Counted from the stretch's first letter, positions 39,111 to 61,159 are shown. The stretch is DNA of 64,000 bases from Candidatus Omnitrophota bacterium (GCA_035292445.1 DATDQB010000020.1:155484-219483); one strand, 5' to 3'. Program-made: numbers and translations. The notes: generated from the sequence alone by a model not told the origin.

Positions 39111-39213
39111 AAATAATTCATGGGTTACCAGTTACCCGTAACCCGTTTCCTATAGAAATCAAAACCGGCAACTGGTAACCGGTAACAGGTAACCAAACCT
39201 CCTTACTTTTACT
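39111..39213. repeat. Intergenic imperfect long hairpin built from GGTAACC-like tandem motifs.
   Basis: gggttaccagttacccgtaaccc ... ggcaactggtaaccggtaacaggtaacc. The same motif family recurs at 59258-59341. Confidence 0.6.
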
Positions 39214-40509
39214 ATGATCGACTTCAAACTCCCCGCCGTCGGCGAAAACATCGAAAAAGGAACGGTCATCAAGCTGTTGGTCTCCGTTGGCGAAGCCGTT
39301 GCCAAGGGCCAGGACCTATTGGAACTGGAAACCGACAAAGCGACCATTCCTGTCCCCTCTCCCAACAACGGTGTCATCAAAGAGATCTTCATTAAAGAAG
39401 GCGATGAGGTCAAAGTCGGCGCTGTCATTATGAAAATTGAAACCCGCCAGCATTCTTCGAATGCTGGCGAGGCCTCGCCAGATTTACAAAAGAAATCTGG
39501 CTGGCCGCCAGCCGCAAAAATTTCCGAACAAAAACCTAAAATCGCAACTAAGACCACAACAAGAGCAGTGCCTCAACCGATGTCACGCACTCCGCTGCCT
39601 AATGAAGCGATTCCCCCACAGACCAATGTCCCGGCCGCGCCGGTCGTACGGCGGTTAGCCCGCGAACTGGGAATCGTTATCTCTCAAGTGCAAGGGTCAG
39701 GCCCGGGCGGGCGCATCAGCGACGATGACGTTAAGGCGTTTGCCAAACAGATCATTTTAGGCGCCGGCCAGATGGGTGGCGGGCTGGCGAAAAAGACCTT
39801 GCCGGATTTTACCAAATGGGGCGAAGTTGAGCGCCAGCCGATGAACAACATCCGCAAAATAACCGCGGAACATTTGAGCTACTGCTGGCAGACCATCCCT
39901 CATGTCACCCAATTTGACAATGCCGACATTACGGAATTGGAAGACTTGCGCAAAAATAGATCAACAGACCATCGCAAGCTCACCATCACCGCGTTTCTCT
40001 TGAAAGTGATGGCTTGGGGCCTGAAAGAATTCCCGCAATTTAATTCCAGCGTCGATATGGACACGCAAGAGATCATTTACAAAAAATACATTCATTTAGG
40101 TGTGGCGGTCGATACCGACCGGGGGCTTTTGGTGCCGGTCATCCGTGACGTCGACAAGAAAAGCATCGTTGAACTGACCGATGAGCTTGGCAAAATGGCC
40201 GAACGGGCCAGGACCAGAAAAACTTCTTTGGAAGAGCTCCACGGCAGCAGCATGGCCCTGACCAATTTAGGGGGCATCGGCGGCACCCATTTTACGCCGA
40301 TCATCAACTGGCCCGATGTCGCCATTTTAGGCGTGTCCCGCGGCGTGTGGGAGCCGGTGTACGCGGACGGCAAATTTATTCCCCGTTTAAAACTTCCCCT
40401 TTCACTTTCCTACGACCATCGCATCATCGATGGGGCCGACGGCGCCAGATTCTTACGCTGGGTCTGCAGGAAGATCGAACAGACATCCTGGGCGGATGAA
40501 TTAAGGTAG
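39214..40509 (+). CDS. aceF: Dihydrolipoamide acetyltransferase E2 (lipoyl domain, E3-binding domain, catalytic domain).
   Basis: Lipoyl-lysine motif ELETDKATIPVPS. PSBD RRLARELGI. Catalytic motif DHRIIDGADGARFL. Confidence 0.9.
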   Translation: MIDFKLPAVGENIEKGTVIKLLVSVGEAVAKGQDLLELETDKATIPVPSPNNGVIKEIFIKEGDEVKVGAVIMKIETRQHSSNAGEASPDLQKKSGWPPAAKISEQKPKIATKTTTRAVPQPMSRTPLPNEAIPPQTNVPAAPVVRRLARELGIVISQVQGSGPGGRISDDDVKAFAKQIILGAGQMGGGLAKKTLPDFTKWGEVERQPMNNIRKITAEHLSYCWQTIPHVTQFDNADITELEDLRKNRSTDHRKLTITAFLLKVMAWGLKEFPQFNSSVDMDTQEIIYKKYIHLGVAVDTDRGLLVPVIRDVDKKSIVELTDELGKMAERARTRKTSLEELHGSSMALTNLGGIGGTHFTPIINWPDVAILGVSRGVWEPVYADGKFIPRLKLPLSLSYDHRIIDGADGARFLRWVCRKIEQTSWADELR

Positions 40510-40551
40510 GGGCAGGCCTTGCGCCTGCCCGATAACGGGCAACCATAAAGG

Positions 40552-42366
40552 TTGCCCCTACATAATATGATAGACATCAAATTACCGGAAATAGGCGAGA
40601 ACATAGAAAAAGGCACGGTCATCAAGCTGTTGGTTTCCGTCGGCGATCAAGTCACGAAGGGGCAGGATCTTCTCGAGCTGGAAACGGACAAAGCGACCAT
40701 TCCTGTCCCTTCGGCCTATAGCGGCGTTATCAAAGAGATCCTTATTAAAGAAGGCCAAGACGTCGAGATCGGCGCGGTGATCATGCGCCTCGATGCGCGA
40801 TCACTCGAAAGCGGCAAGGCTAAGCCAGCCACCCCTCAACCAAAGCCTCAAGCGCAACAAAAAACTCAAGCAGTCCGCCAACATTCTTTGAATGTTGGCG
40901 AGACCTCGCCAGATTTACAACGTAAATCTGGCGGGCAACCGCCCGTTGACCTTAAGAATATCAAAGTCGCTGTCGTTGGTGCCGGCCCCGGCGGTTATGC
41001 CGCCGCCTTTTTGGCCGCTGATTTAGGCCTAGACATCACCTTGATCGACCGTGATATCAACCCTGGCGGCGTTTGCCTTTACCGCGGCTGCATCCCTTCG
41101 AAAGCACTGCTTCATGCGGCCAAAGTTTTATCGGAATCCAAAGACGCCAAACATTTCGGTATCGAATTCAACAAACCCAAGATCGATCTCGATAAATTAC
41201 GCGGATGGAAAGACAGCGTTGTCCAGCAACTCACGGGCGGCTTAGGGATATTGGCCAAACAACGGAAGGTCAAATATGTCCGCGGGACCGCCACGTTCGT
41301 TGACTCAACCACACTGCTTATCAAAAAAGAAGACGGCTCATCGGAAAAAAGTAAATTTGATTATACGGTGATCGCCACCGGTTCCCGGCCCATTAAACTT
41401 CCTTTCCAGCCGGATTCCAAACGCCTGCTGGATTCGACAACGGCGCTCGAGCTTGAAAACATCCCTAAGTCCCTTCTGTTGGTCGGCGCCGGCTATATCG
41501 GGCTGGAATTGGGAACGGTGTATGCTGAATTAGGCGGTGAAGTTTCCGTCGTTGAAATGATGCCGGGGATCATTCCCGGAGCGGACCGCGACCTGGCCCA
41601 AGTGCTGGAAAAACGTTTAAAAACGATTTTCAAAAACATCATGCTCTCAACCAAGGTCCTGGGCATGAAAGAGACGAAAGACGGCATTAAGGTTTCTTTC
41701 GAAGACAAGGACGGCAAAAAATTTGATGAAACGTATGAAAAGGTGTTGGTCGCTATCGGCCGCAAGCCCAATTCGGAAAACTTAGGTTTGGATAAAACAA
41801 AAGTCAAGATCGACCCAAAAGGGTTTATCGAAGTGAATGGGCAACGGCGTACCGCCGATCCGCACATCTACGCCATCGGCGATGTCGCGGGAAATCCGAT
41901 GCTCGCGCATAAGGCCTCCCACGAAGGGCGCATCGCGGTTGAGGCGATCGCCGGCCATAAAGTGGCCTTCGAGCCCAACGCCATTCCGGCGGTTGTCTTT
42001 ACGGATCCCGAGATCGCCTGGGCGGGCTTGACCGAAACCGAGGCCAAAGACCAGGGCATTGAAGTGGAAGTCGTCAAATATCCGTGGGCGGCATCAGGGC
42101 GGGCCTTAACGCTTAACCGCAGCGACGGGTTTACAAAACTTTTGATACAGCCTAGAACGGAACGCATCTTAGGTGTTTCGATCGTGGGGCCCGGGGCGGG
42201 TGAGTTGATCGCGGAAGGTGTCTTGGCGCTCGAAATGGGCTCGGTCGTCTCAGACCTGAAACTCAGTATCCATCCTCATCCAACACTTACCGAAACGCTC
42301 ATGGAATCAGCAGAAATATTCTTCGGCCAAAGCACGCATGTCTACAAGCCCAGAAAAAAAGGATAG
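40552..42366 (+). CDS. lpd: Dihydrolipoyl dehydrogenase E3 with a fused N-terminal lipoyl domain.
   Basis: The N-terminal 80 aa are near-identical to the E2 lipoyl domain. They are followed by FAD-binding VVGAGPGGYAAA, the redox disulfide GGVCLYRGCIPSK, and the C-terminal HPHPTLTE interface motif. Confidence 0.9.
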   Translation: MPLHNMIDIKLPEIGENIEKGTVIKLLVSVGDQVTKGQDLLELETDKATIPVPSAYSGVIKEILIKEGQDVEIGAVIMRLDARSLESGKAKPATPQPKPQAQQKTQAVRQHSLNVGETSPDLQRKSGGQPPVDLKNIKVAVVGAGPGGYAAAFLAADLGLDITLIDRDINPGGVCLYRGCIPSKALLHAAKVLSESKDAKHFGIEFNKPKIDLDKLRGWKDSVVQQLTGGLGILAKQRKVKYVRGTATFVDSTTLLIKKEDGSSEKSKFDYTVIATGSRPIKLPFQPDSKRLLDSTTALELENIPKSLLLVGAGYIGLELGTVYAELGGEVSVVEMMPGIIPGADRDLAQVLEKRLKTIFKNIMLSTKVLGMKETKDGIKVSFEDKDGKKFDETYEKVLVAIGRKPNSENLGLDKTKVKIDPKGFIEVNGQRRTADPHIYAIGDVAGNPMLAHKASHEGRIAVEAIAGHKVAFEPNAIPAVVFTDPEIAWAGLTETEAKDQGIEVEVVKYPWAASGRALTLNRSDGFTKLLIQPRTERILGVSIVGPGAGELIAEGVLALEMGSVVSDLKLSIHPHPTLTETLMESAEIFFGQSTHVYKPRKKG

Positions 42367-42553
42367 TTGGTTATAAGTTGTAAGTTATAAGTAGTAAGTT
42401 AAAAGAAAAACAGAAAAAAACAAACAAACAAAAAAAACGATATTCATATTTTGAATATCGTTTTTTTCTTTCTTTATTCTTTATTTATTTTTTCTTTCTT
42501 TTTTGCTTTTAAGCTTTTACTTATAACCTATGACTTATTACTTATGACTCTTT
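42367..42553. repeat. Intergenic low-complexity long inverted repeat (TAAGT/ACTTA tandem motifs) around a central bidirectional terminator hairpin.
   Basis: gttataagttgtaagttataagtagtaagtt ... acgatattcatattttgaatatcgt flanked by A- and T-runs ... aagcttttacttataacctatgacttattacttatgac. Confidence 0.6.
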
Positions 42554-42925
42554 CTAAATCTCTTTCCCTATCGCCAACTTGACCACCTGGCGCACTTCAT
42601 CCATTTCAAAAGGTTTCTTCAGGCATGTGATCGCCCCCAATTCCATGGCGCGATGGCGCTTCTCATCCACCGAATAACCGCTCATCATGACAACCGGCAG
42701 GTCGGGAGCGACCTCTCTGATCTTTTCCAATACCGACACCCCATCGGGTTCCGGCATGACGATATCGATAAAAACAATATCAAACTTCTCTTTCTTGACC
42801 AATTGGACCGCCTCTTCGCCGTCCTGGACGATCTTGATGTCATGGCCCTTATAGCCCAAGGTGACCCCGAAAAGGTCCCCGATCACCCGTTTATCATCCA
42901 CGACCAATGCTTTTATTTTATCCAT
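42554..42925 (-). CDS. Single-domain response regulator (receiver only).
   Basis: KALVVDD ... IVFIDIVMPEPDG ... receiver fold. 123 aa. Confidence 0.8.
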   Translation of the reverse strand: MDKIKALVVDDKRVIGDLFGVTLGYKGHDIKIVQDGEEAVQLVKKEKFDIVFIDIVMPEPDGVSVLEKIREVAPDLPVVMMSGYSVDEKRHRAMELGAITCLKKPFEMDEVRQVVKLAIGKEI

Positions 42926-42967
42926 CGTTCTTCTCCGAATGACTTATTATAACAGAGGCCAAACCGG

Positions 42968-43864
42968 TTATGTTTTTTGTTCTTTCGTTTTAACGGCCGG
43001 GAGTTTAATGATAAAATTGGCCCCCTTGTGCGGCTGGCTTTCCACGTATACCTTGCCGCCGTGCTCGGCGATCAAGTCTTTGACGAGCGTGAGCCCGATC
43101 CCCGCCCCCTTCGGCTTTTTCGAATAAAAAGGCTCAAAGATCCTTTGTTGGTCGCCCGCCGAAATCCCCGGGCCGGTATCCAGGAAAGAAACTTCAACCT
43201 CGTTCTTCGGCGCATCAAAGCTTGTCGAAATGGCCAGGAATTTATCGCTCCCGCGCGGCAGTTCCCCCATCGCCTGCATCGCGTTAATGACGATATTCAT
43301 GAAGATCTGCTGCAGGTGGATCCCGTCGGCATAAACGAAAGGCAGGCCGTCTTCCAAATTCAGGTCCCAATTGACGCGCTGGATGCGCAATTCGTCCTTC
43401 AACAAATTGATCGAACGGTAAATGATGTCGTTGACGTTGATATAATCCTTCCTGATCTCCCGATGGCGGACCAATTCCATCAGATCGCCCAGCATCTCCT
43501 TAAGGTACACCGATTGCTCATCGATCAAACACACCGGCTTATAGAAGACGACATTGGGGTCCATTTCTTTCTTGAGGAATTTGGCGAAGCCGTGAATGGC
43601 TGTGATCGGCTGGCTGATCTGGTGCAGTATGCCTGCGCTCAAACTGGCGACGGCGGAAATTTTCCCGCTCTCCATCAATTTAAGCTGGGTGGTGCGCAGC
43701 TCCTCGACGACCTGGCTCATCTCGCGGGCCTTCTCATCCAGGGCGTTCTCGTACTGGCGCGTCTTGTCCCTGATCTGCTTATTCAGGAAGACGATATAAA
43801 TAAAAAGGACGAGGACGATGATGAACTGGATAAAAGCCAAAATGGTCAGCTGTAAAAGTGTCAT
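42968..43864 (-). CDS. Membrane-anchored sensor histidine kinase.
   Basis: One N-terminal TM helix. The H-box region is followed by HATPase N/G boxes (NIVINAMQAM, DTGPGI, GAGIGL). Confidence 0.75.
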   Translation of the reverse strand: MTLLQLTILAFIQFIIVLVLFIYIVFLNKQIRDKTRQYENALDEKAREMSQVVEELRTTQLKLMESGKISAVASLSAGILHQISQPITAIHGFAKFLKKEMDPNVVFYKPVCLIDEQSVYLKEMLGDLMELVRHREIRKDYINVNDIIYRSINLLKDELRIQRVNWDLNLEDGLPFVYADGIHLQQIFMNIVINAMQAMGELPRGSDKFLAISTSFDAPKNEVEVSFLDTGPGISAGDQQRIFEPFYSKKPKGAGIGLTLVKDLIAEHGGKVYVESQPHKGANFIIKLPAVKTKEQKT

Positions 43865-44316
43865 AGGTCCTTAATATCTAAATGGAACATCCATTGGTCG
43901 CCTTTTTTGATGCCGTGCTTCCTGACTTCCCCGGCATTGACCTCCAAGACATAGACCGCCTCTTCTTCGGGAACATAATGGGGGCAGGGGTCTTTCTCAC
44001 AGGGCACGGCCTCTTCCTTGATGTCCACGACCCGCCGGGCATCATCCAGCCATAAGATATCCAACGGGATCAATGTGTCTTTCATCCAAAATGAATGGCG
44101 GTAACTGGAAGGAAAAACGAACAACATTCCCCGGCGGCCCTCAAGCTGCTGGCGGAACATAAGCCCCTTCATCCATTCCTCCTGTGTCCTGGCCACTTCG
44201 ACCTCGTAACAAATATCTTTGAGGCAGGCCCGGTGTTGCCCCCCCGGTGCGGCGGCACACGCCAAGAATAAAAACACGACCGCCAAAATAAAATTACTCG
44301 GAAAGAATCGGATCAT
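43861..44316 (-). CDS. DUF192 (COG1430) family protein, secreted.
   Basis: Signal peptide. Conserved WMKGLMFR ... PLDILWLD pattern typical of DUF192. Confidence 0.65.
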   Translation of the reverse strand: MIRFFPSNFILAVVFLFLACAAAPGGQHRACLKDICYEVEVARTQEEWMKGLMFRQQLEGRRGMLFVFPSSYRHSFWMKDTLIPLDILWLDDARRVVDIKEEAVPCEKDPCPHYVPEEEAVYVLEVNAGEVRKHGIKKGDQWMFHLDIKDL

Positions 44317-45658
44317 CGGATTGAATGATATTCAAATAATCTTTAAATTCCAGTTTACCTGTGATCTCTTTGTTAGTGACGGCGATGCGCCGTGATATAT
44401 GCGGGTGCGTGCGCCAATAGCTGTACACCCGGATCGGGTCTTTTTCCTGCTTTTCTTTGAGCATCTCAAGAAAGACGATCATTTGGGCCGGGTCATAACC
44501 GGCATTTTTCATGTATTTGACCGCCAGCTGATCGGCCTGAAATTCATCCTGCTGGGAATATTCCGTGAACAAAGAACTGATCGCCAAGCTGACTCCCGCC
44601 GCCACATCGGAATTTTTTGTCTCCATCGATAAGATCTGCACGAGCATGGCGCCGTAAAAAGCCTGCAGCCTCTTAACGCCGTGCCGGGCAGTGATGTGCC
44701 CGACCTCGTGCGCGATGACGCCAGCCAACTGGTCATCGTTCTCGATTTTATCCATCAGGTCTTTGAATACATAAATATACCCTCCCGGAAGGCTGACAGC
44801 GTTAATGATCTCCTCGCCGCTTTCTTCTTTTTCATCGATGATCTTCGCGAAATACAGCAAGCCTTTACGGTCACAGACTTGGACGATACGCTCAAGAACC
44901 AGATCAAGCCGTTCATTAAGGTCGATGTCCTCAATGACCTCAAATTGCTCCTCGACCTGCTCGGCCACGCGTTCCCCGATACGGACTTCCTTGTCGGTCG
45001 AGTATAACAAGGATTCCTGCTGGCGCGTGGCCAGGTTATATTCGCTGGTGCATCCACAGAAAAAAACGGCCAAACACACGCTCAAGACACAAACGCCCAT
45101 TTTCTTGAGCATCCTAAACAGCTTCGCCATCGGCAATCCGATCACGTTGGTGTAACAGCCCTCGATCCGGTGGATAAAAACGCTGCCGACCCCTTCGATA
45201 TCAAACCCGCCGGCCTTATCAAAGGGGTGCACCTTGCGGTGGTAATTGCCGATCTCTTTATCCGTCAAGGCCGTCATGTACACCTTTGTCTTTTCGTAAT
45301 CAACGAGCCGCTTTCCCGAATCGGTATCGATCAGCGCCACCCCCGTATAAACCCATTGGGCCTTTGAAAAAAGGGCCTTTAAGATGCGCCGGGCATCCGC
45401 GTAATTGCGCGGCTTTAAAATAAGCCTTTTACCGCCCGCGTAAACGACCGTATCGGCGCCGATGACAATACTGCCTTTATGTCGAGCCGCCACTTCTTGG
45501 GCCTTTTTCAAAGCGTTGTGCTGGACCAAGTGGGCGCAGCTGTAGGTGATGTTCTCTAATTCTTTGGAATGGCTGGGCACGACGCAAAATTTGACGCCCA
45601 GAAGCGAAAGAAGTTTCTTGCGCTGCTTGGAAGCTGATGCAAGGATTATACGTTTCAT
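44294..45658 (-). CDS. In-frame fusion of Maf (nucleoside triphosphate pyrophosphatase) to a lipoprotein-type M48 zinc metallopeptidase.
   Basis: N-terminal 190 aa are Maf-like (ILASASKQRKKLL ... GADTVV ... IGLPM). They are followed by a hydrophobic segment with lipobox FFCGC, then an M48 domain with HEVGHITARH (HExxH). There is no stop between the parts. Confidence 0.65.
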   Translation of the reverse strand: MKRIILASASKQRKKLLSLLGVKFCVVPSHSKELENITYSCAHLVQHNALKKAQEVAARHKGSIVIGADTVVYAGGKRLILKPRNYADARRILKALFSKAQWVYTGVALIDTDSGKRLVDYEKTKVYMTALTDKEIGNYHRKVHPFDKAGGFDIEGVGSVFIHRIEGCYTNVIGLPMAKLFRMLKKMGVCVLSVCLAVFFCGCTSEYNLATRQQESLLYSTDKEVRIGERVAEQVEEQFEVIEDIDLNERLDLVLERIVQVCDRKGLLYFAKIIDEKEESGEEIINAVSLPGGYIYVFKDLMDKIENDDQLAGVIAHEVGHITARHGVKRLQAFYGAMLVQILSMETKNSDVAAGVSLAISSLFTEYSQQDEFQADQLAVKYMKNAGYDPAQMIVFLEMLKEKQEKDPIRVYSYWRTHPHISRRIAVTNKEITGKLEFKDYLNIIQSDDPILSE

Positions 45659-45665
45659 TTATATA

Positions 45666-46241
45666 TCAAGATGAATGGAAATCGCCGGCCTTAAAAACGG
45701 ATACCAGCTCACAGCCTTTTTTGGCCAGCGCTTCTTTGGCCCCTTCCCCGCGGTCGATCAGGCAAACCGCCTTCACCACCTTGACATCAAGGGCCGTTAA
45801 AACGTCCAGAGAATGGATGAACGCCTGGCCCGTCGTTGCCACATCGTCGATCAGGATAACGCGGCTGCCCTTCGCGAGCGCCGGGCCTTCGAGCAAGCGC
45901 TGCTTGCCGTGCTCTTTGGCTTTTTTTCGGATAATGAACGTCTTCAAATGTTTCTTCTGCTGGTGGCTTAACACGTTAATGGCCCCGACCAGAGGATCGG
46001 CCCCCAGCGTCGGCCCGCCGATGGCGTCATAGGTAAGGCCTTCGATCGCCTCCAGGATAAGTTTGGCGCTCAAGTACGCGCCGTCAGAGGTCAGGGTGAT
46101 GAGGCGGGCGTCGATGTAATAGTCGCTCACTTTCCCCGAGGAAAGGGTGACCTTCTCGCGGAAATAGGCGTTCTTCTTGATGATGTTCCTAAGCTGTTCT
46201 TTGTCTTGCCTGGATTCAACGCTCATGGTTATCTTATCCAT
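45666..46241 (-). CDS. pyrE: Orotate phosphoribosyltransferase.
   Basis: PRPP-binding motif VILIDDVATTG. Length and overall pattern match PyrE. Confidence 0.8.
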   Translation of the reverse strand: MDKITMSVESRQDKEQLRNIIKKNAYFREKVTLSSGKVSDYYIDARLITLTSDGAYLSAKLILEAIEGLTYDAIGGPTLGADPLVGAINVLSHQQKKHLKTFIIRKKAKEHGKQRLLEGPALAKGSRVILIDDVATTGQAFIHSLDVLTALDVKVVKAVCLIDRGEGAKEALAKKGCELVSVFKAGDFHSS

Positions 46242-54443: not shown

Positions 54444-54490
54444 ATTACCGAAAACTACAGTCTAGAGTCTAGTGTCTGAAGTCTCCAACC

Positions 54491-54664
54491 CTAATTTCCC
54501 GACCCCGGAGGGTTCTTCTTGATACTTTCTTCCACGTGCTCGGAGCCGCTGCTGATCCAGCCGCCCACGGTCTTGACATCATCCCCGATACCTTTTATGG
54601 TATTGCAACCATAAAGCGAGCCCATCAAGGCCAGGGTTAGAACACCTAAGATAACTTTTCTCAT
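54491..54664 (-). CDS. Entericidin (EcnA/EcnB) family small lipoprotein.
   Basis: MRKVILGVLTLALMGSLYGCNTIKGIGDDVKTVGG matches the entericidin pattern (lipobox, then NTxxGxGxDxxxxG). Confidence 0.7.
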   Translation of the reverse strand: MRKVILGVLTLALMGSLYGCNTIKGIGDDVKTVGGWISSGSEHVEESIKKNPPGSGN

Positions 54665-54744
54665 GTTAACTCCTTCCGTGAAGTTTTTCCTGCTCCCAAA
54701 GCGCGAGTCCGCCAACGGCAGACGAGCATTTGGGGTTACCTTAA

Positions 54745-55050
54745 TTATATAGGGCGCGGCGGCCGAGCGGAGCGGGCTGCGCGATCCTTGTCACCGGGCC
54801 GGAAGGGTTTCTTCTTTTCCACATACCTTCTGCCCTCATCTTGTCGCTTGTGGCTAAAAGCGCTTCCCCGCGGATTTTCATAGCGTTGATGCGCTCCATA
54901 GCTGCGGGATGATGGGGGATAACTCTTTGGCCCCGCTTGCCTGCCCGCTGACTGAGCCACCAGCGTGTCGATCTTGCGCTCAAGATAGGTGATCTGTTTT
55001 TGCAGTTCCTTAATTAAAGTAATGACTGTTTCATTGGCTTGCTGTTCCAT
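54745..55050 (-). CDS. Hypothetical small protein (N-terminal coiled coil, Arg-rich C-terminus).
   Basis: 101-aa ORF with its own upstream spacer. Confidence 0.4.
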   Translation of the reverse strand: MEQQANETVITLIKELQKQITYLERKIDTLVAQSAGRQAGPKSYPPSSRSYGAHQRYENPRGSAFSHKRQDEGRRYVEKKKPFRPGDKDRAARSARPPRPI

Positions 55051-55080
55051 AGATACTCCTTAATTTATGTGTCCCTTTTT

Positions 55081-55235
55081 AAAGTGCCTGGCATCTATTT
55101 TTTATTTTCAGGTTATTGGGTCATCAGGCGATCAGGTTGCAGGAAATCGGGGTATTGGGATATTTGGTAAAACCCGATATCCTGATAACCTAATTCCCTC
55201 CATCCTGATATCCTGATTCCCTGATGACCTTTACC
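55081..55235. repeat. Intergenic long imperfect hairpin built from ATCAGG/CCTGAT tandem motifs.
   Basis: ggttattgggtcatcaggcgatcaggttgcagg ... cctgataacctaattccctccatcctgatatcctgattccctgatgacc. Confidence 0.55.
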
Positions 55236-55507
55236 TTCTTCTTCTCCGCCAATTTTTTGGCCTTGGCGACCGCTTTAGCTTCTTTTTTGCGCTGCGCCTT
55301 TAAATTCTTATTCAACTGTTCCGTTCTCTTGATCGCGTCCTTCGCCCTCTTGGCATCGTCTTCTTTTCTCAGCTGCAGCTTATCAACATTGCGAAAAATA
55401 TTCCCGCCGTTGCCCGCGCTTGGGGCCTGGTCGGACAAAGCCAATGCGCTGGTGATGGGTATTAAGAAAATGCCTGCCGCGACCGATATAGCCTTAATGT
55501 TCGTCAT
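55190..55507 (-). CDS. Hypothetical secreted Lys/Ala-rich protein.
   Basis: Signal peptide MTNIKAISVAAGIFLIPITSALA. Highly charged helical remainder. Confidence 0.5.
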   Translation of the reverse strand: MTNIKAISVAAGIFLIPITSALALSDQAPSAGNGGNIFRNVDKLQLRKEDDAKRAKDAIKRTEQLNKNLKAQRKKEAKAVAKAKKLAEKKKVKVIRESGYQDGGN

Positions 55508-55679
55508 CCTGCTCCGCCATTTTCTTTAGGACAATCTCGATCGTTGCCGCGTCAACATCCGCTTCCCTCATGAGCGCCTCGGCGCGCTTTAGGTCATCGC
55601 CATCGACGGCGTCCATGAATTCCTCAAGCTTATCGATCCGCGCCATTTGCTCTAACACCAATGACCCTTCGAAATCCAT
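55494..55679 (-). CDS. Hypothetical small acidic protein (61 aa).
   Basis: Short ORF overlapping the downstream gene start by 14 bp. Confidence 0.3.
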   Translation of the reverse strand: MDFEGSLVLEQMARIDKLEEFMDAVDGDDLKRAEALMREADVDAATIEIVLKKMAEQDDEH

Positions 55680-55691
55680 GGAATTCCACCT

Positions 55692-56021
55692 CTATTTTCG
55701 CGGCAACTGGGAAACAAAACCAATGGCTTGATCGATCCACTCCTTCAAGGCAGCCTCGCCCTTCAACCCTTGCGGCTTCGCCATGACCCAACCCTTCATG
55801 GCCCGGCCAGTAATGTCAAAAGGCACGGTGTTCTTTTTCTTTAAAGCGATCCCGGCATTTGCCTCACCCAAGCGCAGGATCAGATTATCTTTCCAGATCC
55901 CAAAGCACATATTGCCGCGCAGCAAAAATCCCACCCCGCCGAACATTTTTTGTTGCTGGAAATCCCTTCGCTCCTCCACTATCTTCGCCAAACGTTTTTC
56001 GAGTTTCTGATCGTAGGCCAT
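55692..56021 (-). CDS. TfoX/Sxy N-terminal-domain family protein.
   Basis: Conserved MFGGVGFLLRGNMCFGIW ... LRL pattern of the TfoX_N domain. Confidence 0.65.
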   Translation of the reverse strand: MAYDQKLEKRLAKIVEERRDFQQQKMFGGVGFLLRGNMCFGIWKDNLILRLGEANAGIALKKKNTVPFDITGRAMKGWVMAKPQGLKGEAALKEWIDQAIGFVSQLPRK

Positions 56022-56033
56022 AATTAATTGAAC

Positions 56034-56066
56034 CTGTCCCCTCAGAGTGTCCTGTCCCCTTCTCCT
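56034..56066. repeat. Inverted-repeat copy (reverse orientation) of the GGGGACAGGACACTC element.
   Basis: cctgtcccctcagagtgtcctgtccccttctcc is the reverse complement of ggagaaggggacaggacactcccaagggaca at 56407-56440. Confidence 0.75.
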
Positions 56067-56383
56067 TTTTCTAAGTTACCTATACATTGATATTTAACTG
56101 TTACCAGATTGTCCGAACAAAAAGAGTTCTCACCAGATTGACATACAGAAGTTGCTTGTCCAAAGGGTTCAGCACTATCATATCCCCAAGCCTGACATCT
56201 CTGCTTCGCAGTTTGCAATGCTGACGCCCAATCTACTTCAACCGTGTCCAGCCAACTATATTGATAGGACATCTCTATAATGCCGTCTGCCCGACTTCCA
56301 CCCGTTGGTTGTAAAACTTTTACCACCGTACACCCAATGAAAACGGGCAATAGGGCTGTCATTATTAAAATCTTTGTTTTCAT
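56042..56383 (-). CDS. Small hypothetical lipoprotein (113 aa). Its coding ends run into the flanking inverted repeats.
   Basis: Lipobox LLPVFIGC after MKTKILIMTA. Cys-rich mature part. The C-terminal GEGDRTL is encoded by the inverted repeat. Confidence 0.5.
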   Translation of the reverse strand: MKTKILIMTALLPVFIGCTVVKVLQPTGGSRADGIIEMSYQYSWLDTVEVDWASALQTAKQRCQAWGYDSAEPFGQATSVCQSGENSFCSDNLVTVKYQCIGNLEKGEGDRTL

Positions 56384-56406
56384 ATTCTTTGGAAAATCAT
56401 GGAGAA

Positions 56407-56447
56407 GGAGAAGGGGACAGGACACTCCCAAGGGACACCCTTCTATT
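56407..56447. repeat. GGGGACAGGACACTCCC element, forward copy 1.
   Basis: ggagaaggggacaggacactcccaagggacacccttctattt. Repeated directly at 56578-56617. Confidence 0.75.
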
Positions 56448-56577
56448 TCTTCTCTACTTCGATCCTCGGAAACAACGCTTCGTGCGTTTGCATCCGAATT
56501 CCTCATCTAAAATAAAAATATTGTACGGGCCGCAGATCTGCGGCCCCTACTTTGTCTCGATTCTTGTATTGAAGGGG

Positions 56578-56617
56578 ACAGGACACTCCCCAGGGACACC
56601 CTTCTATTTTTTCTCCA
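56578..56617. repeat. GGGGACAGGACACTCCC element, forward copy 2.
   Basis: gaaggggacaggacactccccagggacacccttctatttt. Confidence 0.75.
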
Positions 56618-56757
56618 CTTCTCCCCAAATGCTCCCCGCCTTTACACTACAATTGTTGCCGCGCGGCAACAATTTGAATATGTGCCCGCCGGCACAAATT
56701 GTCGGCCCAGCACACAATTTTAAACAGTACGGACCGCAACAGTGTGCGGCCCCTACG

Positions 56758-57144
56758 TTATAACGCCTTAAACAACCCCTCCACAAACTGAAGATACTCG
56801 CTGGCCTCTTTTTTGGCGATCAGCATATCGGCATTATACATATCCCGATTACGGCTTTTGCGCATCCTTTCGCCGACAACCAACACATCCTGCGAACCCA
56901 AGATCTCGCTTAACGCCTCGATGATCTTCTTATGATGCCCCGGACGACTTTTGACGCGGTAACCTTCCTTCGCCAGATAATAGATCCCTATCATAATAAG
57001 CGCCATATAGGAAAAGTGAAAGACCACCTCCGGCTCCCCATGGCGGCCGGCAATATCCAGATTCCGCTTCGCCGATTTGCGATACTTTCCCAGTTGGGCC
57101 TGCGTAAATTTCTGGCTTATAAAAAAATCCTTATCAAATGTCAT
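56758..57144 (-). CDS. HEPN-domain protein, the putative toxin of a HEPN/MNT pair.
   Basis: Rx4H motif (RPGHHKK). 128 aa. Overlaps the upstream MNT gene by 4 bp. Confidence 0.65.
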   Translation of the reverse strand: MTFDKDFFISQKFTQAQLGKYRKSAKRNLDIAGRHGEPEVVFHFSYMALIMIGIYYLAKEGYRVKSRPGHHKKIIEALSEILGSQDVLVVGERMRKSRNRDMYNADMLIAKKEASEYLQFVEGLFKAL

Positions 57145-57686
57145 AATAGACGGACCGTTTTTCCGTCAAAAATGTTTTTGATGAACTCATCCTTTTGTTT
57201 TTTATTCTTGGCCAACTCCTGCGGGGTGATATCGATGACATTGATCTCGCGGCCGGTCTCTTTTTGAAGGCCATAAATGGCCTTTTGCGCCTCTATGCTG
57301 CTGTGGGTCCCGACCAGCAAAATATCGATATCGCTCATCGCTTCATAACGGCCATTGGCGTAGGAACCGAAAATATAAGCTTCCTTGAGGTTCTTGACCG
57401 TTTTAAGCCTCTCGCTCAAACCGTGCTCAAAACCCGCCGTCTTAAGGAAAATTTCTTTATAGTGCTTGTAGAGAGGGTTCCCCTTATTAACGGAAAAAAA
57501 CCTCTCTTTGCCCCTGAACTCGCTTTTAAGAAGGCCTTCCTGCTGAAGCTGCACCAGGATGCGAAAGACGTTCTTGGGGTCGGCTTCAATAAGCCGGGCA
57601 AGCTCGTTAATATAAGCCTGTTTTTCTTCGTTCAAGAAGAAGTAATTGAGGACCCTCGTTTTGGTTTGGGAACGCGCTCGGATCAT
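57141..57686 (-). CDS. Minimal nucleotidyltransferase (MNT, Pol-beta-like) with an N-terminal winged-helix domain, the putative antitoxin.
   Basis: GSYANGRYEAMSDIDILLVG (GSx9-13DxD). N-terminal HTH-like region NELARLIEADPKNVFRILVQLQQEGLL. Confidence 0.7.
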   Translation of the reverse strand: MIRARSQTKTRVLNYFFLNEEKQAYINELARLIEADPKNVFRILVQLQQEGLLKSEFRGKERFFSVNKGNPLYKHYKEIFLKTAGFEHGLSERLKTVKNLKEAYIFGSYANGRYEAMSDIDILLVGTHSSIEAQKAIYGLQKETGREINVIDITPQELAKNKKQKDEFIKNIFDGKTVRLL

Positions 57687-57742
57687 AATGGTCTTTCTTA
57701 ACCATGATTATGGTATAAATATACCATAACAGAAAAAACCTG

Positions 57743-59257
57743 TCAAGCGGCTGCCTTAGGAGTGGTTTCAATCCTCGGAAACAACGCCTCATGCGTTTGT
57801 AGCTGCGTGCCGCTTTTGAGTTCGCCCCACTTGCTCCCTGATTTAACAGCACCCAAAACTTCAAGTACCTTCTGTGTCTTCGAAGGCATAACGGGGGCTA
57901 GAAAGACCGCGCTTATGCGTAGCGCCTCGCTCGCGGTGTAAAGGATAACGCCGGCTTTTTTAAGGTCCTCTTTGGCGACCTTCCAGGGAGCAGATTCCTC
58001 CAGGTATTTATTCGCCATGCGGACAATGTTCAAGGGCGCTTCAATGGCTTCCCTTATATTCATCCGCTCGATGGATTCCGGAACGGTCTTGGCTAACGCT
58101 TCCGCCGCTTGTTTAATATCTTGTACGGAACGGTCGAGACCGTTCCCTACGGGGATTTTCCCATCAAACAATTTATTAATCAACCCGCTCACGCGGTTCA
58201 ACAAATTCCCAAAGTCATTAGCGAGATCGCTATTGAAACGTTTGATAAAGGATTCGATCGTAAAGTTCGCATCAGAACCGAGCACCATTTCACTCATCAG
58301 ATAATAGCGGACCGGGTCCACCCCATATTGCTCGATCAGATCCAATGGATTGACCACATTCCCTAAGGATTTGCTCATTTTGGACTCGCCAATAAGCCAC
58401 CAGCCGTGGGCGAAAATTGTTTTGGGCAGCGGAATGCCGAGTGAGAAAAGCATGGTCGGCCAATACACGGCGTGGGTGGTCAAAATATCCTTGCCGATCA
58501 GATGAACGTCCGCCGACCACCATTTCTTAAAATTTTTCTCATTGCTTCCATAACCTGGGACGGAAATGTAATTGATAAGCGCGTCAAACCACACATAGGT
58601 GACGTAATCTTTATCAAAAGGAATTTCAATGCCCCAGCTCATGCGGGACTTGGGCCGCGAGATGCACAGGTCCGTCAGCGGCTGCTTTAAAAACCCAAGA
58701 ACTTCATTCTTACGATGTTCGGGCTGGATAAATTCGGGATGCGTATTGATGTATTCGATGAGCTGTTTCTGGTACTTGCCCATCTTGAAAAAATAGTTCT
58801 TCTCTTTTAATTCCTTAACGTCCCGGAAGGCGCCGGATTCTTTCTCGGTTGAGGTGATGAAACGCTCCTCCGAAACCGAATACCAGCCCGTGTACTCATC
58901 GATGTAAATATCGCCCTTGTCGTAGACTTCCTGCAACACTTTTTGCACGATTGTCGTGTGGCGCTTCTCGGTCGTGCGGATAAAATCATCGTTCTCGATC
59001 TCAAGGCGCTTCCACAATTCGCTGAACCTCGGCGCCATCTCATCGGCGTGCTGCTGAGGGCTTACCCCTCTTTTTTCCGCGGCCTGGGCCACTTTTTGCC
59101 CGTGCTCATCGAGGCCTGTTAAGAAAAAAACCTCATCACCCGCGACCTTATGGTAACGGGCGAGCACATCGGCGAGGATCGTTGTGTACGCATGCCCAAT
59201 GTGCGGCTTGTCGTTCACGTAGTAAATCGGAGTTGTGACAAAAAATTTGGAGCTCAT
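57743..59257 (-). CDS. metG: Methionyl-tRNA synthetase (core form without the C-terminal tRNA-binding domain).
   Basis: HIGHAYT and KMSKS motifs (PHIGHAYTTILAD, SKMSKSLGN). Confidence 0.9.
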   Translation of the reverse strand: MSSKFFVTTPIYYVNDKPHIGHAYTTILADVLARYHKVAGDEVFFLTGLDEHGQKVAQAAEKRGVSPQQHADEMAPRFSELWKRLEIENDDFIRTTEKRHTTIVQKVLQEVYDKGDIYIDEYTGWYSVSEERFITSTEKESGAFRDVKELKEKNYFFKMGKYQKQLIEYINTHPEFIQPEHRKNEVLGFLKQPLTDLCISRPKSRMSWGIEIPFDKDYVTYVWFDALINYISVPGYGSNEKNFKKWWSADVHLIGKDILTTHAVYWPTMLFSLGIPLPKTIFAHGWWLIGESKMSKSLGNVVNPLDLIEQYGVDPVRYYLMSEMVLGSDANFTIESFIKRFNSDLANDFGNLLNRVSGLINKLFDGKIPVGNGLDRSVQDIKQAAEALAKTVPESIERMNIREAIEAPLNIVRMANKYLEESAPWKVAKEDLKKAGVILYTASEALRISAVFLAPVMPSKTQKVLEVLGAVKSGSKWGELKSGTQLQTHEALFPRIETTPKAAA

Positions 59258-59341
59258 AGATTTGGGTTACCAGTTACCTGTTTCCTGTTACCAGTTGTTA
59301 CCTGTTTTATTGGTAACCGGTAACGGGTAACCGGTAACTAT
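59258..59341. repeat. Intergenic GGTAACC-motif long hairpin, the same family as 39111-39213.
   Basis: gggttaccagttacctgtttcctgttaccagttgttacctgtttt attg gtaaccggtaacgggtaaccggtaac. Confidence 0.6.
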
Positions 59342-60124
59342 TTATGTATATACCGACTTGACCAGGCGGCCTTCACCCACATCCACGGTCACGTACTTTT
59401 TGAGGATGTTGATATCCACGACCCTGCCCTTGCCTTCGGGGAGCGTGACCTTATCGCCGACCCGAGGTAAGTTCCTGGCAAATTCCCTGTAGACCTCGTA
59501 CTCATACGCCATGCAGCATTTGATCCGCCCGCACACCCCTGATATGCGTGAGGGGTTAAGGGGCAGCCCCTGGCTCTTGGCCATTTTTATCGACAAAGGA
59601 TGGAAGCCTTTCAGGAAAGAACTGCAGCAAAGCTCGCGGCCGCACACGCCATAACCACCGATGATCTTCGCCTTATCGCGCACGCCTATTTGCTTCAATT
59701 CGATGCGCACCCTAAAAACGCGCGCCAGATCCTTAACAAGATTGCGGAAATCCACGCGCCCTTCGGAGGTAAAATAAAAAATGACCTTGCTTGAGTCAAA
59801 GGTGTATTCCACCTTCGTGATCTGCATATCAAGCTTGCGGTCGGTGATCTTGCGCACACAGGTGCTTTGGGCGTCCTTGGCCTTCATGAGGTTATTCTCG
59901 ATCTGCTTAAGGTCCCCTTCGGTCGCTTTGCGCAAGACCTTGCCCTCGACGGATTCGGGCTTGGTGTCACATACCTTTTTGATATCGGAGATGACACGGC
60001 CGAACTCACTCCCGCGCTCGACCTCCAGTATCACGATATCGCCTCTATTGCATTCCACGCTGTTCAAGTAACACAAACTCGGGCCGCGAAACTCGCCCAA
60101 TTGCACTTCGATCAGTCTATCCAT
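59342..60124 (-). CDS. PSP1-domain protein (YaaT / RicT-like).
   Basis: PSP1 C-terminal domain pattern. Conserved position between holB and metG, as in the Firmicute tmk-holB-yaaT arrangement. Confidence 0.75.
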   Translation of the reverse strand: MDRLIEVQLGEFRGPSLCYLNSVECNRGDIVILEVERGSEFGRVISDIKKVCDTKPESVEGKVLRKATEGDLKQIENNLMKAKDAQSTCVRKITDRKLDMQITKVEYTFDSSKVIFYFTSEGRVDFRNLVKDLARVFRVRIELKQIGVRDKAKIIGGYGVCGRELCCSSFLKGFHPLSIKMAKSQGLPLNPSRISGVCGRIKCCMAYEYEVYREFARNLPRVGDKVTLPEGKGRVVDINILKKYVTVDVGEGRLVKSVYT

Positions 60125-61082
60125 GGATCATCTCCCTCAATATCATCAATGACAAGCGGATGTTAAGGTTGTCCGTAAGCTGCTTGTAGGCCAGAACAAC
60201 CGTGTCATGGATCGTATTTAACTGCGCGAATGAAAATTTGACCTGGAAATTCTCCAAATCCTTCTTGCGGTCCAGATGGATGAGCCGCTGGTCAGCGACC
60301 CCCGATTTGCACAAAATGGCGTCCCTGACCCAGCTCAATAGGACTTTAAGGAACTCTTGGCATTTTTCCCTATCAGTACTCATCTCTTTGATGAACGCCT
60401 CGCTGTCAGCGCGGAAAAGAAATTCATCCAAATATTCGTTCTTGGCCTCGAAAAAACCTTCCTCCCGCAGCCGCTCGGCCCTTTTCAGGCACCCTTCGGC
60501 GAAATACGACAGGAAATGGGACGAGGCAAAGCTTTCCACATATTTTCCTTCCAGGTATTGGAGGATCCTTTCGCTGGATTCGCTTAAAAAATGCACCGCT
60601 TGGCAGCGCGAGCGCACCGTCGGCAAAAGTTTCTCAGGAACCGAGCTCGTCAACAAAAGGACGCTTGTGCTGGTAGGCTCCTCAAGCGTTTTTAAAAGGG
60701 CATTCGCCGCATCCGGCGTCATCCCTTCGGCGTCCTTGATGATGAAAACTTTCCTTTTCGCCTCGAACGGCCTTAAGCGCGCCTGGCCCAAGAGCTCTCT
60801 GACCTGGTCGATCTTGATGACGGATGAATCCTCTTCGCATTGCAGCACGTGCACGTCCGGATGATTGGATTTAATTATCTTCAGGCAGGAGGCGCATTGA
60901 TCACAAGAAATGCCTTCACCCGGCTTCTCACAATTGAGCATTTTGGCGAGCACGAGGGCCGTTTCGAATTTGCCGACCTCCTGGGGGCCGATCAAAAGAT
61001 AGGCGTGGGCCAAGAGGCCTTTCTTCTCAATCGTGCAAAAGCGCTCAAGAATATTTTGATGGATGTTGAGGATTTCTTTCAT
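60117..61082 (-). CDS. holB: DNA polymerase III delta-prime subunit.
   Basis: AAA+ Walker-A-like GPQEVGKFETALVLAKMLNC. Zinc module CDQCASC. SRC box TVRSRCQ. Confidence 0.85.
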   Translation of the reverse strand: MKEILNIHQNILERFCTIEKKGLLAHAYLLIGPQEVGKFETALVLAKMLNCEKPGEGISCDQCASCLKIIKSNHPDVHVLQCEEDSSVIKIDQVRELLGQARLRPFEAKRKVFIIKDAEGMTPDAANALLKTLEEPTSTSVLLLTSSVPEKLLPTVRSRCQAVHFLSESSERILQYLEGKYVESFASSHFLSYFAEGCLKRAERLREEGFFEAKNEYLDEFLFRADSEAFIKEMSTDREKCQEFLKVLLSWVRDAILCKSGVADQRLIHLDRKKDLENFQVKFSFAQLNTIHDTVVLAYKQLTDNLNIRLSLMILREMIHG

Positions 61083-61159
61083 GTTAGCTTTCAGTCGTCA
61101 GTCTTCAGTCATCAGAAACCATCCGTCTGACAGCTGACGACTGACGTCTGATGACTTAT
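61083..61159. repeat. Intergenic hairpin built from GTCAG/CTGAC tandem motifs, between tmk and holB.
   Basis: tcagtcgtcagtcttcagtcatcag aaaccatcc gtctgacagctgacgactgacgtctgatgac. Confidence 0.55.

Follow-up and report, generated by a model that had tools for sequence, protein, structure and literature searches.

Inverted pairs of heptanucleotide repeats in intercistronic spacers of an Omnitrophota genome

Cyanobacterial heptamer repeats of the STRR type were reportedly described by Mazel et al. in 1990. Several bacterial phyla are rich in heptanucleotide repeats, whose origin and role are left open in the accounts compared here. In the work of Mrázek et al. (2007) on long SSRs, as summarized in PMC4679880 and PMC4692102, 7-nt arrays were over-represented in comparison to other unit lengths and lay in non-coding DNA, and their formation by polymerase slippage in 7-nt steps was proposed (PMC4679880). 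The GGGAATC repeats of Xanthomonas (Rehm et al. 2015, PMC4692102) have a 7-nt unit in which some positions are conserved and others variable; they are mostly intergenic, and species often have them at the same position but with different length and sequence. Heptamer repeats of Xanthomonas and Nostoc show a preference for about four units, are found between co-directional ORFs at less than 50 bp from a stop or start codon, and are transcribed; in Xanthomonas, 70 to 75 cases are convergent inverted array pairs capable of forming a stem-loop (PMC4692102). Another word, TAACTGA, is shared by unrelated phyla (Beggiatoaceae, cyanobacteria, Bacteroidetes), in sets that are almost exclusively direct (169 direct versus 1 inverted) and predicted to be unstructured, and its arrays stop a few nucleotides short of start codons, in genomes or regions poor in Shine-Dalgarno sites (MacGregor 2015, PMC4679880).

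We analyzed a window of 64,000 nt from a Candidatus Omnitrophota bacterium (DATDQB010000020.1:155484-219483), for which an earlier note had reported intergenic hairpins assembled from short tandem motifs. The elements are real and belong to the known, poorly understood class of bacterial heptanucleotide repeats, of which they are a new example, in Omnitrophota. Imperfect hairpins of 60-180 nt occupy five spacers of the window, and a sixth lies just past its end. Each arm repeats a unit of 7 nt (8 nt at one site) 3-5 times in tandem, and in this unit a conserved core of 5-6 nt is accompanied by 1-2 variable bases. The earlier note, which gave the word as 5-7 nt, missed this strict 7-nt periodicity and with it the link to already described heptanucleotide repeats; only at 55081-55235 is the unit 7-8 nt. 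The words used are GGTAAC, GTCAG/CTGAC, TTATAAG, AGACT, and CCTGAT, that is, at least five unrelated words within 30 kb. Since the cores of one arm are complementary to those of the other, each DNA strand, and likewise the transcript, can fold into a stem, of 23-31 bp (45 bp at 55118-55230) and interrupted about every 7 nt. Such convergent arrays of the same word, close together and stem-loop-capable, were found at the five window sites and at positions 875-958 of contig L001. All arrays are intergenic except the arm at 55176-55225, which extends into the 3′ end of an unannotated ORF. Of the six window sites, four are located between co-directional genes, as is the mlaD|radA site, and the stem bases are placed 2-12 nt after stop codons and 3-19 nt before the next start codons. 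Our sample covered ~78 kb of the host genome, with all sites inside 29 kb of that; array density was ~13 in ~68 kb of the host versus 12 in 1.26 Mb around the metG loci of 80 other genomes.

Tandem Repeats Finder (TRF) returned nine period-7 arrays with copy numbers of 3.3-5.1 (39124-39147, 39163-39194, 42370-42405, 42519-42549, 54455-54477, 59266-59296, 59312-59338, 61091-61115, and 61134-61156) and a period-8 array at 55176-55225. A strict lag-p self-match scan of the window, requiring four units at ≥80%, found six arrays at period 7 and none at periods 5, 6, and 8-12. Under a looser criterion of 12 of 14 matches, eight period-7 arrays were recovered, all at sites of the earlier note, versus an average of 0.13 (maximum 2) in 200 dinucleotide shuffles of the window. 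At comparable stringency, the count was 0-1 for periods 5, 6, and 8-10, and a looser 10-of-12 threshold raised it to five for period 6. The folding-energy calculation that had been suggested as a check was also run: with the exception of 54444-54500, RNA folds of the spacers were stable beyond shuffles (z = -3.3 to -8.4), at most 2 of 200 shuffles folding as well. The sense strand was the more stable one in only three of nine hairpins, and this lack of sense-strand bias fits a strand-symmetric origin at the DNA level.

The flanking genes had been guessed correctly for aceE|aceF, ricT(yaaT)|metG, and tmk|holB, and several elements are indeed placed inside operons (aceE-aceF and tmk-holB-ricT-metG); lpdA and a response-regulator gene, which are convergent, were identified as the other flanking pair. 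The aceE|aceF hairpin (39123-39194, + strand; TRF period 7) has a 5′ arm of four NGTTACC units (39124-39150) and a 3′ arm of four NNGGTAA units (39163-39194) around a 16-nt loop, and its mRNA strand folds at -28 kcal/mol (z = -3.75). The hairpin fills its spacer, starting 12 nt past the aceE stop and ending 19 nt before the aceF ATG. Likewise, the ricT|metG spacer is filled by GTTACC and GGTAAC heptamers, 4-5 units per arm (59265-59339, - strand; detected by TRF, folds z = -5.0 and -5.3), and on the mRNA this hairpin extends from 3 nt past the ricT stop to 8 nt short of the metG ATG. The two sites begin alike, as had been noticed, with the 15-mer GGGTTACCAGTTACC at both 39122 and 59264 (zero expected by chance). 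Between tmk and holB (61086-61156, - strand; detected by TRF, folds z = -4.4 and -5.4), arms of four GTCAGNN and four CTGANGA units fill the spacer from 3 nt past the tmk stop to 3 nt before the holB ATG, and GTCAG/CTGAC words are common to this site and mlaD|radA.

The convergent lpdA and response-regulator genes enclose a composite 181-nt hairpin (42369-42549, assigned to neither strand; detected by TRF, fold -48 kcal/mol, z = -8.4), the outer heptamer arms of which are TTATAAG-type (42370-42405) and CTTATNA-type (42519-42549). Inside these arms are A-rich and T-rich tracts and then a central AT-rich bidirectional terminator, whose core at 42431-42467, flagged by the terminator scan on both strands, confirms the one proposed within 42367-42553. 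A long hairpin with 7-8-nt units NNNTCAGG / CCTGATNN (55118-55230, - strand; TRF periods 8 and 23, folds between -55 and -61 kcal/mol with z-scores of -5.6 and -6.2) is flanked by two small unannotated ORFs, neither with a Pfam family, and its right arm covers the last codons of the ORF at 55190-55507. Finally, the array before mtnA (54455-54477, - strand; TRF period 7, 3.3 copies) reads AGACTTC, AGACACT, AGACTCT, and AGACTGT on the mRNA strand and ends ~11 nt before the mtnA ATG. It is without an inverted partner, and the fold of 54444-54500 is weak (z = -1.9); being single-armed, it is a direct heptamer array and no hairpin. The proposal that at least six spacers share one construction holds for the five window hairpins and fails for 54444-54490.

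The closest known counterparts are bacterial heptanucleotide simple-sequence repeats, above all the convergent inverted GGGAATC pairs of Xanthomonas, with which the window elements share 7-nt units, arrays of about four units, inverted pairing, and intergenic sites near stop or start codons, mostly between co-directional ORFs. In contrast, a single G-rich word with G-quadruplex potential dominates each Xanthomonas genome, the window words are several and not G-rich, the host belongs to a different phylum, and the window stems are mismatched at about every seventh base. Three or more head-to-tail 7-nt units, a period-7 excess, and a non-coding site near stops or starts place the arrays with heptanucleotide SSR/LSSR/STRR, likewise heptamer tandem arrays over-represented in non-coding DNA. 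However, LSSR/STRR arrays are described as direct, often long, and length-polymorphic, whereas those in the window are short (3-5 units), imperfect, almost always provided with an inverted partner, and identical in every other contig covering them. Proximity to starts, scarcity of Shine-Dalgarno motifs, and a core related to GACTGA/CTGANGA recall the TAACTGA repeats, for which 54455-54477 is the best fit, although the window elements are mostly hairpins. TAACTGA itself was rejected as a class, since no array uses this exact word and only the near-start position and the related CTGA core are common to both. G-quadruplex-type G-rich units were also rejected, as no word holds a G3 tract and none can form a G4.

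REP, BIME, and SMAG families are short intergenic imperfect palindromes, often co-transcribed in operons, for which roles in mRNA stabilization or partial termination have been proposed. Within one genome, REPs follow a common palindromic consensus of 20-40 bp with a conserved terminal tetranucleotide (GTAG or CGTC), and RAYT (Y1) transposases are associated with them. The window elements resemble them as short intergenic imperfect palindromes inside operons but differ in having internally periodic arms and no consensus across sites. With at least five words and no terminal GTAG/CGTC tag, they were rejected as REP elements; MITEs were rejected on the lack of direct repeats flanking the hairpins and on the unit-by-unit differences between the two GGTAAC copies. 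Of the earlier suggestion of a genome-specific, REP-like class, what stands is a lineage-enriched class defined by its architecture; a REP-like shared sequence or terminal tag was not found.

Comparison with other contigs provided information on the history of these sites. Three to four further contigs, from different samples, carry the ricT|metG and tmk|holB hairpins without any change, and three carry the mlaD|radA hairpin in identical form; the hairpin sequences are therefore not assembly artefacts. No unit-number polymorphism was found among the covering contigs, which is a weak test as the samples may represent one clonal population. In two relatives at 77% identity (L212 and L215), tmk and holB overlap and the hairpin is absent. 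Among ~30 Omnitrophota relatives, ricT and metG are adjacent in most and separated by unrelated inserts in a few, and the ricT|metG hairpin was found in none. Since tmk/holB and ricT/metG abut or overlap in the 77%-identity relatives, the hairpins are lineage-specific insertions. A sister contig at 89% identity (L085) keeps the tmk|holB hairpin with 71 of 77 positions identical (92%) and an unchanged unit count, and downstream of ricT it has another heptamer element, composed of AAGATAC words. A 12-nt tandem duplication adjoins the tmk|holB hairpin in the sister, indicating slippage-type mutation at that spot; the identical hairpins and constant unit count give no sign of ongoing slippage. Third-codon positions of the genes flanking the tmk|holB hairpin are only 66-68% identical to the sister, and none of the six changes in the hairpin falls in the paired cores, all being in the loop, at variable positions between units, or in the flank. 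This conservation resembles constraint, but 90 nt of tmk and 50 nt of holB next to the hairpin are conserved to the same degree (~250 nt overall), and the signal is therefore not attributable to the hairpin itself.

On balance, we favor with moderate confidence the explanation that the elements are heptanucleotide simple-sequence repeats in inverted pairs, born by slippage and co-transcribed as intercistronic stem-loops. The arrays would have grown in place by replication slippage in 7-nt steps, and the second arm may have come from a near-palindromic unit (GGTNACC, TTATAA, TCTAGA, GATATC) or from hairpin-templated strand switching. The elements would then be transcribed with the operon without terminating transcription and would fold between the cistrons. 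The hairpins may be tolerated in these gaps because the folded stem would leave the stop codon 2-12 nt and the start codon 3-19 nt from its base. A role in processing or stability, among those raised for these hairpins, is possible: the stem could act as a barrier to 3′ exonucleases or as an RNase III site, uncoupling the stability of neighboring cistrons. RNase III sites of T7 early mRNA and REP stabilizers are precedents for such long stems. Long imperfect non-terminating stems between cistrons, as in T7 early mRNA and SRPS operons (for the latter, PMC8219983), are how the window elements would work, although the T7 and SRPS hairpins are not built from tandem heptamers.

The words were also traced beyond the host. 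In IMG/VR, (GGTAACN)3 was found in 99 stretches and (GACTGAN)3 in 69, compared to 8-31 for six control words of the same composition, an excess of 3-4.5 times over the control mean. This excess suggests that the words are non-arbitrary, which pure slippage does not predict. The same words and design occur in unrelated metagenomic and viral contigs: one IMG/VR contig holds at least five copies of a conserved ~130-nt element with outer arms of GGTAAC heptamers, and the composite design of heptamer arms around a terminator was likewise seen in an IMG/VR contig. Together with the conservation of the tmk|holB hairpin (92% versus ~67% at synonymous positions), these observations hint at a broader reading, which we regard as speculative: an unrecognized, cross-phylum class of modular intergenic element, in which a small set of preferred 7-nt words, GGTAAC and GACTGA among them, would be placed symmetrically around a loop, terminator, or gene by a dedicated process and kept for preserving or tuning the expression of flanking cistrons. 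Polymerase stalling and 7-nt slippage at the hairpin base, followed by templated copying to the other arm, could be that process, as could the action of a specific enzyme or binding protein.

Word preference also speaks for the rather unlikely alternative that the heptamer cores are binding sites for an RNA- or DNA-binding protein, such as a post-transcriptional regulator or ribosome-associated factor, that tunes downstream translation, as has been put forward for TAACTGA repeats immediately upstream of start codons; roles of this kind are proposed in PMC4679880 and bioRxiv 10.1101/2022.06.06.494920. In line with it, the 3′ arms reach to within 0-19 nt of start codons in the host and in other organisms (L065 before tatD, L155 before rseP, and L016), the one-armed array precedes mtnA closely, and Shine-Dalgarno motifs, present upstream of about one-third of the window genes, are found upstream of none that follow hairpins. 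However, with at least five words in one genome, a single sequence-specific factor cannot explain all sites, the window words are sequestered in stems whereas TAACTGA arrays are direct and predicted to be unstructured, and 7-bp spacing leaves little room for one protein per unit on duplex DNA. No candidate protein was identified.

We consider it improbable that the elements are small non-autonomous mobile elements of REP or MITE type, copied between intergenic sites by a transposase or RAYT-type enzyme encoded elsewhere. Such copying would account for words that occur at more than one site (GGTAAC both at 39123 and at 59265, including the identical 15-mer, GTCAG/CTGAC at tmk|holB and mlaD|radA), for presence and absence among relatives, including the replaced occupant downstream of ricT, for the repeated GGTAAC-armed element on one IMG/VR contig, and for the several contigs that break inside arrays. 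It fits poorly with at least five unrelated words in 30 kb, with elements that have no sequence in common apart from the repeated word, with flanks showing neither target-site duplication nor a common terminal tag (e.g., GTAG), with GGTAAC copies whose arms differ unit by unit, and with annotated parts of the window that contain no transposase-like gene. Nothing was found in support of recombination scars, which had also been put forward.

There is similarly only a slim chance that the elements are selected structured RNAs, that is, intercistronic processing or stability hairpins under purifying selection whose heptamer periodicity is incidental. The retention of tmk|holB in the sister, with changes confined to positions outside the paired cores, and stems long enough at 23-31 bp to be RNase III substrates would agree with selection. 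Against this, the flanking coding sequence is equally conserved, the ricT|metG spacer of the sister holds a completely different element, the 77%-identity relatives have none, and the folds show neither a sense-strand nor a G-U bias. In a scan against Rfam 15, no hairpin reached the gathering score, and the only matches, including those at 55118-55230, were to miRNA-precursor models below threshold. Elsewhere in the window, a tmRNA and one tRNA were the only features above the Rfam threshold.

Terminators or attenuators had been suggested from the position of the elements. In the terminator scan, only the core at 42431-42467 qualified among the sites, with the heptamer arms merely flanking it. 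No in-operon hairpin was flagged whole on the transcribed strand as a G+C-rich stem directly followed by a U tract; only inner sub-stems were flagged, at ricT|metG (59316-59335, + strand) and tmk|holB (61140-61123, - strand). Although the elements occupy expected terminator positions, one holds a canonical bidirectional terminator, and a heptamer-armed terminator recurs in IMG/VR, it is very improbable that they are ordinary intrinsic terminators or attenuators that are repetitive by chance, as the in-operon hairpins part genes that abut or overlap in relatives and are expected to be co-expressed (aceE-aceF, holB-ricT-metG) and a period-7 excess is not a property of terminators.

These elements add Omnitrophota, a phylum not named in the accounts compared here, to the hosts of heptamer repeats. 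They do so in a clean design, with several unrelated words in 30 kb, nearly all of them as hairpins fitted exactly into the gaps between cistrons of essential operons. Empty sites are available for comparison in relatives, and the sister lineage shows both retention and replacement, making the locus a compact test bed for distinguishing neutral slippage products from working RNA elements. In practice, metagenome assemblies break at such elements, and ORF calls can run on into the repeats, as for the ORF at 55190-55507. If upheld, the word preference and conservation would indicate an as yet unknown, sequence-specific process.

The hairpins consist of inverted pairs of heptanucleotide repeat arrays. 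Tandem Repeats Finder reported period-7 left and right arrays in the spacers between aceE and aceF (39124-47 and 39163-94), lpdA and a response-regulator gene (42370-405 and 42519-49), ricT and metG (59266-96 and 59312-38), and tmk and holB (61091-115 and 61134-56). Between two small ORFs, only a right array was reported (55176-225, period 8), and upstream of mtnA a single array (54455-77) has no right counterpart. Each unit comprises a conserved core of 5-6 nt and one or two variable bases, and in paired sites the core of one arm complements that of the other (e.g., NGTTACC and GGTAACN, GTCAGNN and CTGANGA, or TTATAAG and CTTATNA). The predicted stems, of 23-31 pairs (45 at 55118-55230), are broken about every 7 nt. 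The single construction that the earlier note saw in at least six spacers was found at five of the six sites it listed; the sixth, 54455-77, has one arm and a weak fold (z = -1.9) and is a direct array rather than a hairpin. A predicted 105-aa ORF on the minus strand (55190-55507), without a Pfam match, has its last ~14 codons inside the right arm of the hairpin at 55118-55230 and is either a spurious call or an ORF extended by the repeat.

The 7-nt periodicity is specific. A strict lag-p self-match scan (4 units, at least 80%) returned six arrays at p = 7 and none at p = 5, 6, or 8-12. With a looser period-7 criterion, eight arrays were detected, every one at a site named in the earlier note, versus a mean of 0.13 in dinucleotide shuffles (n = 200). 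Folding energies, which that note had suggested calculating, gave hairpin z-scores from -3.3 to -8.4, and the sequence it described as common to the two GGTAAC hairpins is an exact 15-mer present in both, with 0 expected by chance. Three to four further contigs, derived from different samples, carry the ricT/metG and tmk/holB hairpins unchanged, and unit numbers were identical across all assemblies. An assembly artefact is ruled out, since the same sequences recur in independent assemblies. All sites fall in 29 kb out of the ~78 kb of genome read. No period-7 arrays were found in the ~9.4 kb to the left of the window (L091), and the contig ends in the added flanking sequence (~9.4 kb left, 3.7 kb right) are unrelated to heptamers.

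As the earlier note had proposed from sequence, the flanking genes are aceE and aceF, ricT (yaaT) and metG, and tmk and holB, the last four lying in the order tmk-holB-ricT-metG. The lpdA and response-regulator genes are convergent. Read along the mRNA, the stems inside operons start 2-12 nt past the upstream stop codon and finish 3-19 nt before the following ATG. A further hairpin of this kind, built of the same GTCAG/CTGAC words as the tmk/holB element, occupies the mlaD/radA spacer on contig L001 (875-958), which extends 3.7 kb beyond the window end; it is identical in three other contigs from different samples. A relative whose RadA is 80% identical has a 92-nt gap ahead of radA, compared with 91 nt between mlaD and radA here, and the gene upstream of its radA showed no MlaD match.

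Several other features of the region were recorded. The lpdA ORF (40552-42366, plus strand) has TTG as its listed start and an N-terminal extension of ~135 residues, the dihydrolipoyl dehydrogenase match starting at residue 138. A 716-nt spacer carries, at 7845-8357, two ~175-nt non-coding units that are 81-83% identical, contain internal hairpins, and matched no Rfam family; they may represent paired small RNA genes or a further family of repeats. The 822-nt AT-rich tract at 17564-18385, with no ORF of at least 80 aa in the gene selection used, could be a decayed gene. The 251-nt spacer at 56507-56757 is full of near-perfect GC-rich palindromes (e.g., 56523-50, 56651-74, and 56731-52) and has a direct repeat, TGCGGCCCCTAC, at its borders (56539 and 56745); within it, contig L003 skips from 56569 to 56736. 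A single 10-nt gap is the sole difference between L001 and the window.

The host is an uncultured Omnitrophota bacterium, the name under which NCBI lists the identical RicT, AceF, and RadA proteins. The closest MetG relatives (73-77% identity) belong to Omnitrophota MAGs, and in most of ~30 Omnitrophota metG loci the ricT-metG gap measures a few nucleotides at most, with unrelated inserts at this junction in a few. In the 77%-identity relatives, ricT and metG overlap or lie 3 nt apart, and tmk and holB overlap in the two contigs that include tmk (L212 and L215). Because both junctions are tight in most relatives, the hairpins represent insertions or expansions between genes that are specific to a single Omnitrophota lineage. 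For the aceE/aceF hairpin (39123-39194), the database offered no closer comparison than an AceF of 66% identity. Period-7 arrays were scarce elsewhere, with only 12 in 1.26 Mb of 80 other loci versus ~13 in ~68 kb here. Three of these 12 form hairpins of exactly this design from different words: AGCTCGT/ACGAGCC in L016 (5937-6018), from 3 nt past a stop codon to 2 nt ahead of an ATG; AGACT/GGTCT in the same contig (510-600), ahead of a gene having a Shine-Dalgarno site; and GTTAGGT/ACCTAAC in the Marinimicrobia MAG contig L065 (11879-12000), terminating at the tatD ATG.

A sister lineage (contig L085, 89% RicT identity) retains the tmk/holB hairpin (61086-61156 in the window) with 71 of 77 nt identical (92%). 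At third-codon positions, tmk, holB, and ricT reach just 66-68% identity. The six hairpin differences are confined to the loop, the variable positions between units, and the 3′ flank. Taken alone, this hairpin identity would suggest constraint. The adjoining sequence is likewise conserved, with 92-97% identity over the terminal ~90 nt of tmk and the initial ~50 nt of holB; with the flanks included, the pattern may instead reflect recombination over a short tract or constraint on a wider region. Directly past this hairpin, L085 also bears a 12-nt tandem duplication (TGAAAGCTGACA, 395-420) that yields two in-frame holB ATGs. Downstream of ricT, the sister contig carries a quite different element of AAGATAC words (2161-2268), which is complete in L212 as a composite hairpin of ~250 nt (4138-4386). 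This composite combines AAGATAC/GTATCTT words on the outside with A/C-rich and G/T-rich tracts and a GC-rich hairpin on the inside, and its position in both contigs is that of the GGTAAC hairpin in the window organism (59265-59339). The picture is one of gene junctions undergoing gain, retention, and replacement of these elements.

Among the alternatives raised in the earlier note, termination fits one site in part. The AT-rich core of the lpdA/response regulator element (42431-42467) was flagged on both strands, as expected from the bidirectional terminator described there, and is the only terminator at these sites. The terminator scan never flagged an in-operon hairpin whole, picking out just inner sub-stems at 59316-59335 and 61140-61123; these data demonstrate that the elements themselves are not terminators. 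The REP-like class also put forward did not hold, as the sites have no common consensus, terminal tag, or target-site duplication and therefore do not qualify as REPs or MITEs as these are defined. Selection at the RNA level, looked for as a sense-strand bias, was rejected: both strands fold about equally, the sense strand being more stable in just three of nine hairpins and having no excess of G-U pairs, leaving no sign of transcript-specific selection. A known RNA family was likewise rejected, since the hairpins gave only sub-threshold matches to miRNA-precursor models. In the Rfam search of the window, only a tmRNA and one tRNA reached threshold, both away from the hairpins; the tmRNA gene (34509-34901, minus strand, 166.6 bits) and the tRNA gene (36232-36313, plus strand) lie in long spacers upstream of aceE. 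Each hairpin spacer carries stops in all three frames, which is expected of any ~90-nt non-coding stretch, and the words AAGATAC and GGGAATC (the latter from Xanthomonas) contain no stop codon, so a three-frame stop function was dropped. A special absence of Shine-Dalgarno sites at the downstream genes does not discriminate, since such motifs precede only some one in three of the ~59 ORF starts inspected across the window. A link to the neighboring small ORFs was dropped after a Pfam search returned no relevant match.

The same words recur in unrelated contigs. JGI metagenome contigs contain at least 120 stretches of (GGTAACN)3, and most of the 80 that were read are unpaired arrays. Window-like hairpins were present in L104, L116, L140, L147, L155, and L160, that of L155 extending from a stop codon to the rseP ATG. 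Pairing as a general trait of GGTAAC arrays was rejected: with an inverted partner at only ~5-9 of the 80 loci, pairing belongs to this organism and not to the word. On two JGI contigs, inverted GGTAAC arrays enclose longer segments: in L120 (2570-3508), 600 nt with a long internal palindrome, and in L125 (118-898), a whole small gene whose product, judged by eye, seems to resemble a four-helix-bundle/23S rRNA intervening-sequence protein. On the 29.4-kb IMG/VR contig IMGVR_UViG_3300042691_041112 (L219, L261, and L265), five or more copies are present of a conserved element of ~130 nt, (GTTACCG)3-GTTGCACC-bidirectional terminator-GGTGCAACC-(GGTAACC)3, which shares one common design with window element 42369-42549. 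A TCAGTCN/GACTGAN hairpin on a viral-classed IMG/VR contig (L391, 5218-5285; sample 3300025326) closely resembles the tmk/holB element. When (wordN)3 stretches were counted in IMG/VR for eight words that all have the same base composition, the window words GGTAAC (99 stretches) and GACTGA (69) ranked first and second, ahead of the controls AGGCTA (31), GCGATA (29), ACGGTA (28), GGATAC (21), GTGCAA (13), and GCATGA (8). With several stretches per contig in some cases, this ranking is no more than suggestive of a word preference.

The window elements agree feature by feature with the heptanucleotide repeat class. According to Mrázek et al. (2007), as cited in PMC4679880 and PMC4692102, heptanucleotide tandem repeats are the top over-represented long simple-sequence repeats in many prokaryotes, and slippage of the ~7-nt segment bound by the polymerase has been proposed as their cause. 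The closest match is with Xanthomonas, where transcribed GGGAATC repeats, preferentially of four units, occupy the gaps separating co-directional ORFs, no more than 50 bp from a stop or start codon, often keep their position across species while varying in length, and form convergent inverted pairs capable of stem-loops in 70-75 cases per genome (PMC4692102). The TAACTGA repeats of Beggiatoaceae, cyanobacteria, and Bacteroidetes, which are direct and unstructured, stop a few nucleotides short of start codons (PMC4679880), and a preprint on Nostoc links heptamer repeats close to promoters and start codons with regulatory effects but gives no mechanism (10.1101/2022.06.06.494920). What sets the window elements apart from the Xanthomonas type is their host phylum, the use of at least five words within 30 kb, none of them G-rich, and mismatches that recur periodically.

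By analogy with this class, the arrays would arise through 7-nt slippage, and where the core is near-palindromic, as in several units (GGTNACC, TTATAA, TCTAGA, and GATATC), expansion of the array alone would go half of the way to an inverted repeat. The elements are probably co-transcribed and would be tolerated because the folded stem holds the upstream stop near the downstream start; the stems may also block exonucleases or be cut by RNase III. Two residual puzzles are the apparent preference for certain words in unrelated contigs and the locally conserved sequence of the sister lineage. Taken together, these elements are a real and tidy example, in a new phylum, of a repeat class that is known but still unexplained.
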